A stretch of DNA of 10,387 nucleotides, taken from positions 1 through 10,387 of the IMG/VR virus record IMGVR_UViG_2529293069_000033; one strand, given 5' to 3'. Of the stretch, positions 3,001 to 6,000 are shown in pieces. The stretch comes from a virus. Lineage: Duplodnaviria > Heunggongvirae > Uroviricota > Caudoviricetes. Position numbers: made by a program. How positions within the stretch are numbered: the first letter of the stretch is position 1; each line of letters opens with the position of its first letter.

Positions 3001-6000
3001 AAGCAGCAGGGCATGCCATACAGTGTAATACCCCCGGATTAAAGCCAGACACTATTTTATGGTGGGCTGGTACGACTCTGGGGCTAGCAGATTTAAACAA
3101 AGCCGAGACCGGAGAAGCCAGATTCACTGACTATCCTCGTATATGGTGGCATGCAAGAGAAGGAGCCATCTTCCCCAATAAAGAAGATATTGCCCGTGCA
3201 ACAGGGGCTGATATACGTGCGATGGAAGAAGGTGTCCCTGTTGATCATCGACATCCACATCCTGAAGATGTGGTCATCGATATCGAAAGCTCTCCACATA
3301 ATAATCCATCAAATTATGTTGATACGGTTGATATAATCCGAGAAACAAGAGTCTAAGCTTTAACTTGTTTATTTTAAAATAATAGCTGAAATGGATGACA
3401 GCTATTATTAATAAGGAACAATATATTCTTTCTTGGATTTGACTCTATATTTTCAGACACCTGTTATCCCTTAACGTTACTAATACTTGCGTAGTGAATT
3501 TATGAACAATCCTAATCCATGCATGACGTGTGGTGCCTGTTGTGCATTTTCCGCGTCTCTTTTTACCAGGCTGAAGCAGATGATGCTGGTGGCATCATCC
3601 CCGTAACCCTGACTGAGCAAATCTCTCCGAACCATAGAAGCATGCAGGGCACTAACCAGAAAAATCCTCGATTTGTGGCCTTGGACGGAGAACCGGGAGT
3701 CAATGCCTGCTGCTGCATTCATCAGAATCGCTCGTCCACCTTCAGGGAATTTCCTGTGTCCGAAGAAAATGGTGTGGTTAACTAAGCAAAAGTATCCCTT
3801 TATCGGTATAGCAACTTATTTTGTTAACATGTGGTTGCAAAATGGATGACAAGTGTTTATTTTAGCCACAAGAAATGTATGCAAACTAGAATTGGGAAAT
3901 GCATTTATAAAATAAGGAATAGCAGATATGTTTGCAGCAAAGCCCGAACCCAGTCAAAGATGTATTTCTGGCTTCCTCACTACTGGGCCAAATGATGAAA
4001 ACGCAAATAATAAACCGTCAAGTGATATGGCGAACAGAATCAAACCAGTTGTAAGCGATTTACAAATCGATATATACAACTGACAGTAATACTCTGAAGG
4101 ATGGATTGTGTAGCCAAGCCCACATAGGAACTCAACCTTATCGGCCAGGTGCTGACTCGCCGCTAACTGTGAGATCATTCCTACAAATCACACTTTCCAA
4201 CAATAATTACAAATCATTAGAGCATCTGCAAACTCGAGCAGAGAATTATCTGAGGCATCGCAAAGCAGAAGAGAATATTCTGCGTTCGACCGTTGAGTGA
4301 ACCGCCCCGGGTTTCCTGGAGAGTGTTTTATCTGTGAACTCAGGCTGCCAGATCATCGTTTCCGATGGAAGCATAATAAGCTTTTTCTGCTTCTGCCGGA
4401 GGAGTATGGCCCAGCCTTTCCAGCAATCGTCGATTGTTATACCAGTCCACCCACGTGAGTGTGGCCAGTTCCACTTCTGCACGGTTTTTCCAGCTCTTAC
4501 GGTGTATTACCTCCGCTTTGTAAAGACCATTGATGCTCTCCGCCATCGCGTTGTCATACGAGTCGCCTGTACTTCCTGTTGATGCCAGTAATCCGGCTTC
4601 CTTAAGCCGCTGTGTGTAGGCCAGCGATACATACTGAGAACCTTTATCACTGTGATGGACCGTGCCGGACGGTCGACGGGCCCATAACACCTGCTCCAGT
4701 GCATCCAGCACGAATGTCGTCTCCATGGACGATGAGACCCGCCACCCCACAATGTATCCGGCAAACACATCAATGATGAACGCCACACAGACGAAGCCCT
4801 GCCATGTGCTGACGTAAGTAAAATCAGCCACCCACAGCTGGTCAGGTCGTTCTGCCACGAACTGACGGTTTACGCGGTCGCCTGCGGCAACGGCTTTCCG
4901 GCTGATGGTCGTACGGACCTTTTTACCCCGGAGAACACCGGCAAGTCCCATAACCGCCATGAGACGTGCCACAGTGCATCTGGCCACTCTGATACCTTCC
5001 CGTAACAACTGACGCCAGACTTTACGCACACCGTATACCTTGTGATTTTCATCGTATACGCGCTGTATCTCTTTCTTCAGCCAGTCATCGCGCTGCGCAC
5101 GGGCACTGCGTTTATCCGGATGATGTCGCTGTTGCTGACAGTGGTAATACGTTGACGGGGCAATATGCAGTTCGCTGCATAGCGGTCCGACCCCGTACTG
5201 CTCACGCAGCTTATCCAGCAGTGGCATCATTTTTTCCAGAGGCGGTCGAACTCCGCCTTCGCAAAATAAGCGGAAGCCTGGCGAAGGATATCGTTACTGC
5301 GGCGCAGTTCACGATTTTCACGCTCCAGCTCTTTCAGACGCTGACGTTCAGCGGTGGTGAGCCCTCCATCACCGCCCCCGGTATCCCGCTCATGCTGGCG
5401 AACCCAGACACGCAGAGTCTCCGGCGTACAGCCAATCTTTGGAGCAATGGAACAAATTGTCGCCCATTGTGAGTCATATTCGCCCTGACTTTCCAGAACC
5501 ATACGGGCTGCCCGTTGACGGACTTCAGGGGAAAAACGAGTATTTTTAGTCATCCTGTTTACCTCTTTCTCAGGAAGTTTAGTCTCCAGGATTCCCGGGG
5601 CGGTTCAGTTTCCTAACCATCAAGTGTATATGCTGACTAAATTAGTCAATATCTATGGGTTGAGTTCTACCAAAAGTGGCTCTGTAGTCGCTTCTTCTTA
5701 CAGTATATTCAGGTGTTGCAGGAACAGTTGTGGAGCGTAGATGCGTTGTTGGTTTACCATGCTCTGGTACATAAAAAACGCCAATGCCATGGTAACCTGA
5801 TATAGAAACGTTAATTCCACGACTTTCAAACTCGGCATAGACGTGTTCTGCTAAAGACTTCTTTTGACCAAATAATGTCCTGGCCAACCAGCCGTTATTA
5901 ATATTTGAGGATTTATCTATTTCATCAGGAGAGAAGTCTTTGTTTTTTATTATGTTGGCTGAGTTACAGGATGTTAATCTGATATCATCTATTTCATGAA

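Follow-up and report, generated by a model that had tools for sequence, protein, structure and literature searches.

The window analysed here is a stretch of 10,387 nucleotides from a virus of the Caudoviricetes (IMG/VR record IMGVR_UViG_2529293069_000033, positions 1 to 10,387). At positions 4298-5607 it carries a complete insertion sequence (IS) of the IS629 type, which lies between a truncated espV gene and an espS pseudogene in an Escherichia coli prophage. We consider it likely that this element did not insert at its present site, that its two junctions have separate histories, and that DNA was both lost and exchanged there. The first-pass annotation had suggested an IS-mediated deletion or recombination between two IS629 copies rather than a simple insertion. 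This suggestion is supported, in that the two junctions occur apart from each other in other genomes and sister prophages differ at the ends of the IS. The features on which the argument depends are the following.

120-1328, plus strand: intact espV, prophage allele (copy 1), the reference for the breakpoint, which falls between its nt 491 and 492.
3928-4297, plus strand: truncated espV, plasmid/island allele, ending in GAG at the left junction; identified from direct repeats with copy 1.
4298-5607, minus strand: complete IS629-type element of the IS3 family, 1310 bp; identified from its terminal inverted repeats and from identical full-length copies elsewhere.
5608-5641, no strand: native 3' flank of espS, beginning with GTT at the right junction.
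5642-6528, minus strand: espS pseudogene, frameshifted and chimeric; identified from the annotation of the equivalent locus in C325, from sliding identity and from indels.

The junctions read ...cgaccgttGAG/IS/GTTtcctaacc. Neither a 3-bp (GAG versus GTT) nor a 4-bp (TGAG versus GTTT) target-site duplication is present, so that the direct 3-4 bp repeat expected on both sides of a simple insertion is missing. In addition, the two flanks are not contiguous in the uninterrupted relatives and represent unrelated loci. The earlier description of a complete IS629 without a duplication is borne out by the GAG and GTT flanks and by the exact 1310-bp boundaries. A left boundary shifted 3 nt leftward, where a GTT is found at 4292-4294, was also considered and rejected; the intervening GAG belongs to espV (nt 489-491 of copy 1), and the IS boundary is therefore not misplaced. 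The 7-mer CTAACCA occurs both at 495-501, 3 nt past the breakpoint position in the intact espV, and at 5613-5619, 5 nt into the espS flank. Its presence in both flanks is probably due to chance, because it is absent from the other IS629 insertion sites examined.

The left flank had been described as a truncated second copy of the intact gene. The truncation was confirmed: about 370 nt of espV remain (about 124 of 402 codons), ending at the equivalent of nt 491 of copy 1. The idea of a local duplicate was not. Identity of the truncated gene is about 96% with copy 1 and rises to 99-100% with the plasmid/island allele; the whole of 3401-4297 is 99-100% identical to pO55, p2013C-3264 and B19374 (100% to pO55). 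The same ykgJ'-espV allele is uninterrupted in ML35 and B19374, which match a synthetic uninterrupted query at 98.7-98.9%. Since a block of plasmid/island type is embedded in sequence of prophage type, the second espV is, on these comparisons, an imported allele that was killed by an IS-linked deletion, rather than a local duplicate. Relative to copy 1 the truncated gene also has a 2-bp deletion at 4070-4076 (repeat spacing 3808 versus 3806), so that the reading frame would be lost even if no IS were present. A third remnant of espV, in inverted orientation, is located at 6865-7102, where nt 309-414 of copy 1 are fused directly to the region downstream of espV (1450-1577). It adjoins a remnant of an IS3-family orfA at 6483-6779, and a longer form of this structure is found in UTME-14.

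On the right, the proximity to a gene end was correctly noted, as the espS stop codon lies 34 nt from the end of the IS, but the flank was wrongly called unrelated: it is the sequence that natively follows the 3' end of espS. The empty site is present in O157:H7, O103 and A25 as ...gattct/GTTtcctaacc with no IS, where the upstream sequence is aaaacaatgattct. Compared with intact espS, the pseudogene lacks 1 bp near 6269 and 2 bp near 6435.

The junction of truncated espV with the IS was found in 24 genomes and the junction of the IS with espS in 21, while both were present on one IS in only 9 chromosomes, all of which have this prophage next to btsS. With the IS ends named for the inverted repeat right (IRR), downstream of orfB, and the inverted repeat left (IRL), upstream of orfA, the contexts are as follows.

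Window and the 9 chromosomes: espV'...GAG on the IRR side, GTT-espS on the IRL side.
pO55-type plasmids: espV'...GAG on the IRR side, CTTtcgaaaacc (CTT) on the IRL side.
p2013C-3264, copy 1: espV'...GAG on the IRR side, TTTgcagg on the IRL side.
p2013C-3264, copy 2 (inverted, 6.4 kb away): ...cgaaAG on the IRR side, GTT-espS on the IRL side.
ML35: ...caatgACT on the IRR side, GTT-espS on the IRL side.
Oki1680 and UTME-3: ...caggTC on the IRR side, GTT-espS on the IRL side.

None of the flank pairs in this set of six contexts makes a duplication, and B19374 also pairs the espS junction with a different left flank. Each junction is thus carried separately by other IS copies with different partners, which is the pattern expected of recombination between two copies. 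If the stretch that separates the two inverted copies in p2013C-3264 were flipped, exactly the espV'-IS-espS arrangement would result. No crossover signature was located inside the IS of the window, as the copies compared offer too few informative single-nucleotide polymorphisms (SNPs).

It is hardly credible that the window records a simple insertion with a duplication since removed by point mutations, or a mis-join in the assembly of a multi-copy IS. Mis-joins are known to arise from multi-copy IS elements, although there is no specific support for one here; the nine independent complete chromosomes share the arrangement of the window, and it is therefore not an assembly artefact. As for an erased duplication, the flanks are two unrelated loci, each with a known uninterrupted form, and no point mutations could restore a duplication between them.

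A further flank, ctttcgaaaacc, abuts the IRL end in pO55 (7170 onward) and the IRR end of copy 2 in p2013C-3264 (15662 onward). Homologous exchange between IS copies cannot place this flank at opposite ends of the IS. The arrangement could be the result of a deletion between two directly oriented terminal inverted repeats (14 nt identical) in the inversion isomer, or of two insertions at one hotspot. In B19374, the two IS629 copies (5106-6362 and 9199-10455) each align to the IS of the window in two pieces, nt 1-517 and 555-1310, and both are annotated as frameshifted transposases; each copy is therefore internally rearranged over about 40-55 nt. Around nleA, espV and espS, the B19374 island consists of densely interspersed fragments of IS66, IS21, IS3 and IS91.

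A simple insertion would demand either ...gattctGTT to the left of the IS or GAGgggctaacc to its right. The collections searched comprised 5,426 complete E. coli genomes, metagenome contigs, one-genome-per-species contigs, and the plasmids of PLSDB and RefSeq. In the complete E. coli genomes, synthetic queries for the direct partner junctions (IS/GAGgggctaacc and gattctGTT/IS) found none, giving only two-piece near-misses and an independent insertion offset by 22 bp (UTME-14 and UTME-10). The inverted partner junctions were likewise absent from these genomes; the best inverted match, in 95-3192, was rejected as a partner, as there IS629 has inserted into espV independently and is bordered by an AAG duplication. 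The exact direct strings of both partner junctions were absent from the metagenome contigs, and the one-genome-per-species contigs contained neither the espV partner string nor the left junction of the window itself as an exact string. The copy of IS629 with reciprocal flanks that the first-pass annotation had proposed to look for was consequently found in none of the genome, metagenome and per-species searches, which argues that the DNA was lost rather than swapped. Nor did any of the 5,426 complete E. coli genomes provide a relative with a simple insertion at this site, a result that would have told against the earlier proposal. A contiguous espV'-IS-espS arrangement was absent from plasmids in PLSDB, which gave only one-sided matches, and in RefSeq; two matches that seemed to unite the IS with espS proved to be separate pieces joined by the search tool.

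The region around the IS is a mosaic, as read from sliding identity tables with 200-bp sub-windows.

About 2001-6207: plasmid/island-type cassette comprising nleA, ykgJ', espV', IS629 and the 3' part of espS, inside prophage-type sequence.
1-2000: 100% identical to the Oki1680 prophage (also UTME-3) and 99-100% to 25-07338; only 75-97% to plasmid/island sequences.
2001-2400 and 2601-3200: 97.5-99.5% identical to pO55; 97-99.5% to B19374 and p2013C-3264.
3201-3400: 89% identical to plasmid/island alleles; no sampled donor matches well.
5608-6207: about 100% identical to ML35, B19374 and p2013C-3264; only 95-96% to UTME-14 and O157.
6208-7107: 99-100% identical to the UTME-14 type.

The exceptions to a plasmid/island identity of 97.5-100% within the cassette are 2401-2600, the repeat region of nleA, and 3201-3400. 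The tables place putative crossovers near 2000, at the start of nleA, and at about 6207, inside espS. Accordingly, espS is a chimera, with a 3' part (600 bp, to about 6207) of the ML35/plasmid/island type and 5' 300 bp of the UTME-14/O157 type. The nleA gene (2001-3400) is itself mosaic, its 5' 400 bp being 98-99.5% identical to pO55 and B19374 versus 90% to the otherwise identical Oki1680 prophage. It includes an array of 12- and 21-nt repeats at 2488-2601 which varies between strains.

The ends of the IS are a hotspot of deletion and recombination in the sister prophages. UTAK-1 shares the left junction and has a 100% identical IS, but it has lost 287 bp (window 5608-5894) by a deletion that begins exactly at the IRL end. 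Oki1680 and UTME-3 have outer flanks and a right junction identical to those of the window, with a different flank on the IRR side. The sister prophages diverge precisely where the IS ends, and we regard these ends as active breakpoints. The 316-bp IRR-side flank of Oki1680 was absent from every other locus fetched, save UTME-3. In the IS of Oki1680 and UTME-3, nt 493-744 also contain an 11-SNP patch, the product of a separate conversion event.

These sister prophages bring up the possibility that the chimera formed in the prophage itself, when an Oki1680-like prophage with IS629-espS recombined with a pO55-like plasmid, nleA and IS629 serving as homology arms, so that the IS would be a true recombinant. 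Oki1680 and UTME-3 match the window at 100% over 1-2000 and at about 100% over 5608-7899, and differ from it only between nleA and the IRR end; pO55 would supply 3401-4297 at 100%, and the 11-SNP patch in Oki1680 shows that IS copies do exchange sequence at this locus. We nevertheless consider such an origin improbable. The 3' part of espS (5608-6207) is of plasmid/island type as well, so that import of a pre-formed block is simpler, the direction of change could equally be from the window type to the Oki1680 type, and there are no informative SNPs in the IS of the window.

Evidence on the lost DNA comes from ML35 and B19374, in which an intact espV is followed by 66 bp and then by a 530-bp fragment of the IRR end of IS629 in the orientation of the window. 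This fragment lies 903 bp from the position of the espV breakpoint. ML35 also has a full IS629-espS unit in the same orientation 13.4 kb downstream of ykgJ'-espV. Both genomes thus retain the deleted interval beside an IRR end in the same orientation, and UTAK-1 provides a second deletion flush with the IS, as expected for IS-adjacent deletion.

The same organisation might be taken to indicate a single deletion in place, in which the IRR end of an espS-linked IS629 attacked espV and an ML35-like interval of 13.4 kb was lost with no exchange between copies. The gene order and orientation in ML35 fit this exactly, large deletions adjacent to IS629 are documented, and in UTAK-1 DNA has been lost flush with the opposite end of this IS. 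Even so, we rate this explanation as rather unlikely. In the pO55-type plasmids and in copy 1 of p2013C-3264, the espV'GAG/IS junction is paired with two other flanks on the IRL side, and these cases would need a later exchange between copies anyway. Moreover, a deletion from the IS629 fragment that lies 66 bp past espV in ML35 and B19374 would be far shorter, at 903 bp.

The lack of a duplication in the window does not reflect a general property of the element, since this IS629 lineage normally duplicates its target. All simple insertions found (five copies) are bordered by a 3-bp duplication.

UTME-14 copy: 99.5% identical to the IS of the window; AAA duplication; in the nleG7-espS spacer, 22 bp to the left of the site in the window.
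UTME-3, copy 2: 99.8% identical; GAA duplication; elsewhere in the same prophage region.
95-3192 copy: 99.8% identical; AAG duplication; in espV, in the opposite orientation.
57_142493 copy: about 96% identical; GGG duplication; in a FUSC-family gene (yeeA homologue).
2017C-4109 copy: about 96% identical; CCG duplication; between dacD and nleG7.

The first-pass annotation had recognised that a lineage which inserts without duplication would undo its proposal; the AAA, GAA, AAG, GGG and CCG duplications at these sister copies indicate otherwise.

The element itself has the organisation of an IS3-family member, and its parts are listed here.

4298-4322, no strand: IRR-side terminal inverted repeat, the end downstream of orfB.
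5583-5607, no strand: IRL-side terminal inverted repeat, the end upstream of orfA.
5227-5553, minus strand: orfA, 108 aa, with HTH_Tnp_1 (Pfam).
4340-5230, minus strand: orfB, 296 aa, with HTH_21 and the rve DDE integrase core (Pfam).
5156-5272, minus strand: ALIL pseudoknot, a programmed -1 frameshift signal (Rfam RF01497, 120 bits, E = 2.5e-32).

The ends are of the TG...CA type (TGAACC...GGTTCA), starting with TGAACCGCCCCGGG and ending with CCCGGGGCGGTTCA, and the 25-nt terminal inverted repeats agree at 23 of 25 positions. The length of 1310 bp together with these ends conforms to the IS3 family (about 1.2-1.5 kb, imperfect inverted repeats, TG...CA), as does the combination of a helix-turn-helix orfA and a DDE/rve orfB with programmed -1 frameshifting; the ALIL pseudoknot covers the orfA/orfB overlap. 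RefSeq labels the same element a programmed-frameshift IS3 transposase. Full-length copies 100% identical to the IS are held by several E. coli genomes, and the element is structurally intact at present. It differs from the copy on pO55 of O55:H7 CB9615 at 2 of 1310 nt (99.85% identity); that copy is classed as IS629 "type II" (Rump et al. 2011, PMC3271280). Copies in BA92 and Z1323CEC0012 with an identical left junction are annotated as IS629 family, while the identity to the O157:H7 copies annotated as IS1203 is about 96%. Based on the near-identity to the type II copy of pO55 and on the IS3 features, the name IS629 is justified for this element, the comparison having been made via the pO55 copy.

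In the proposed history, the rearranged cassette probably took shape on a plasmid or island before recombination carried it into the prophage. First, on an island or plasmid of the enteropathogenic E. coli (EPEC) type, an IS629 would have been located just downstream of an intact espV, as is partly the case in ML35 and B19374. A deletion flush with its IRR end would have taken out about 0.9 kb, and with it the 3'-terminal two-thirds of espV, to give espV'...GAG/IS. This may have been achieved by a one-ended attack of the transposase on neighbouring sequence, perhaps with the aid of the IS-excision enhancer (IEE), or alternatively by a second nearby insertion followed by recombination between both copies. 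Second, a separate IS629 would have inserted at the GTT 34 bp downstream of espS, the neighbour of espV; the site itself is observed in its empty form, and later loss of the upstream half-site would leave IS/GTT-espS. Third, RecA-type recombination between IS629 copies would unite both junctions on one element, for example by the segment flip described for p2013C-3264. Fourth, the cassette, whose mosaic structure is evident, would have entered the prophage next to btsS via homologous crossovers at about 2000 and about 6207. The order of these events, the donor, and a transposase-driven origin of each deletion (with or without IEE) as opposed to a second insertion plus RecA are what we infer from the arrangements described above.

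Several points weigh against this history. The data fix neither the order nor the direction of the steps, and either the Oki1680 type or the window type could equally be ancestral. The IS copies at these junctions differ at 0-6 of 1310 sites, too few to reveal a crossover point. A transposase-driven deletion and a recombination between two copies would give identical products, indistinguishable by sequence. The region 3201-3400 has only 89% identity to plasmid/island alleles, so the cassette is not one clean block. Finally, no plasmid or island in the collections has espV'-IS-espS as a contiguous unit, and the proposed donor is therefore hypothetical.

In both B19374 and p2013C-3264, phage lysis genes, nleH' and espS are bracketed by two inverted IS629 copies. 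One might speculate that the bracketed segment is a working IS629 compound transposon by which type III effector genes travel among plasmids, islands and prophages, with the IS of the window as a leftover end, but we regard this as very doubtful.

Outside the cassette, the tail-tip gene J contains three single-base indels in its 3' part (+A, +G and -G at 9981, 9992 and 10283) relative to C325, Oki1680 and O157:H7. They split the gene into open reading frames of 166 and 142 aa, which represents either a pseudogene or a sequencing error in the source.

At the IS629 sites of four O157:H7 genomes, a matching 3-4 bp duplication was present in 21 of 47 and lacking in 26 (Rump et al., PMC3271280). 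Thus, a duplication-free IS629 at the boundary of a prophage effector module is an expected and already described state. As a discovery the present case carries little weight, given that duplication-free IS629, adjacent deletions and exchange between copies are well documented in enterohaemorrhagic E. coli (EHEC) and EPEC. Its value is descriptive and modest: it documents at base resolution the sharing of an nleA-truncated espV-IS629-espS cassette among pO55-type plasmids, EPEC islands and a btsS-adjacent lambdoid prophage, together with the differences of sister strains at the IS ends. For annotation, the second espV should be labelled an imported allele with an IS-linked deletion rather than a local duplicate.

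Among known elements, the IS of the window resembles the type II IS629 of pO55 (IS3 group; isoforms IS1203 and IS3411) in its 1310 bp, TG...CA ends, 25-nt repeats and orfA/orfB -1 frameshift at ALIL, and it shares the espV'/IS junction with pO55 to the base. Unlike pO55, it has a different IRL-side flank, and its sequence diverges by about 4% from O157:H7 copies that bear the annotation IS1203. Deletions and small structural polymorphisms associated with IS629 in EHEC were reportedly described by Ooka in 2009 and by Kusumoto in 2011, those of the latter reportedly being IEE-dependent. The window is similar to these EHEC deletions in that the IS is kept, DNA is removed flush with an IS end, no duplication is present and related strains differ at the IS ends; it is dissimilar in that whole flanks have been exchanged between prophage, plasmid and island settings, for which a deletion by itself does not account. 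The locus likewise corresponds to the exchangeable effector loci of lambdoid prophages, with nleA, espV and espS lying between the tail-fibre genes and the chromosomal btsS in an arrangement that is mosaic between strains. It departs from the typical locus in that part of the cargo is 99-100% shared with pO55-type plasmids and the ML35 and B19374 EPEC islands, and in that an IS629 marks the module boundary.

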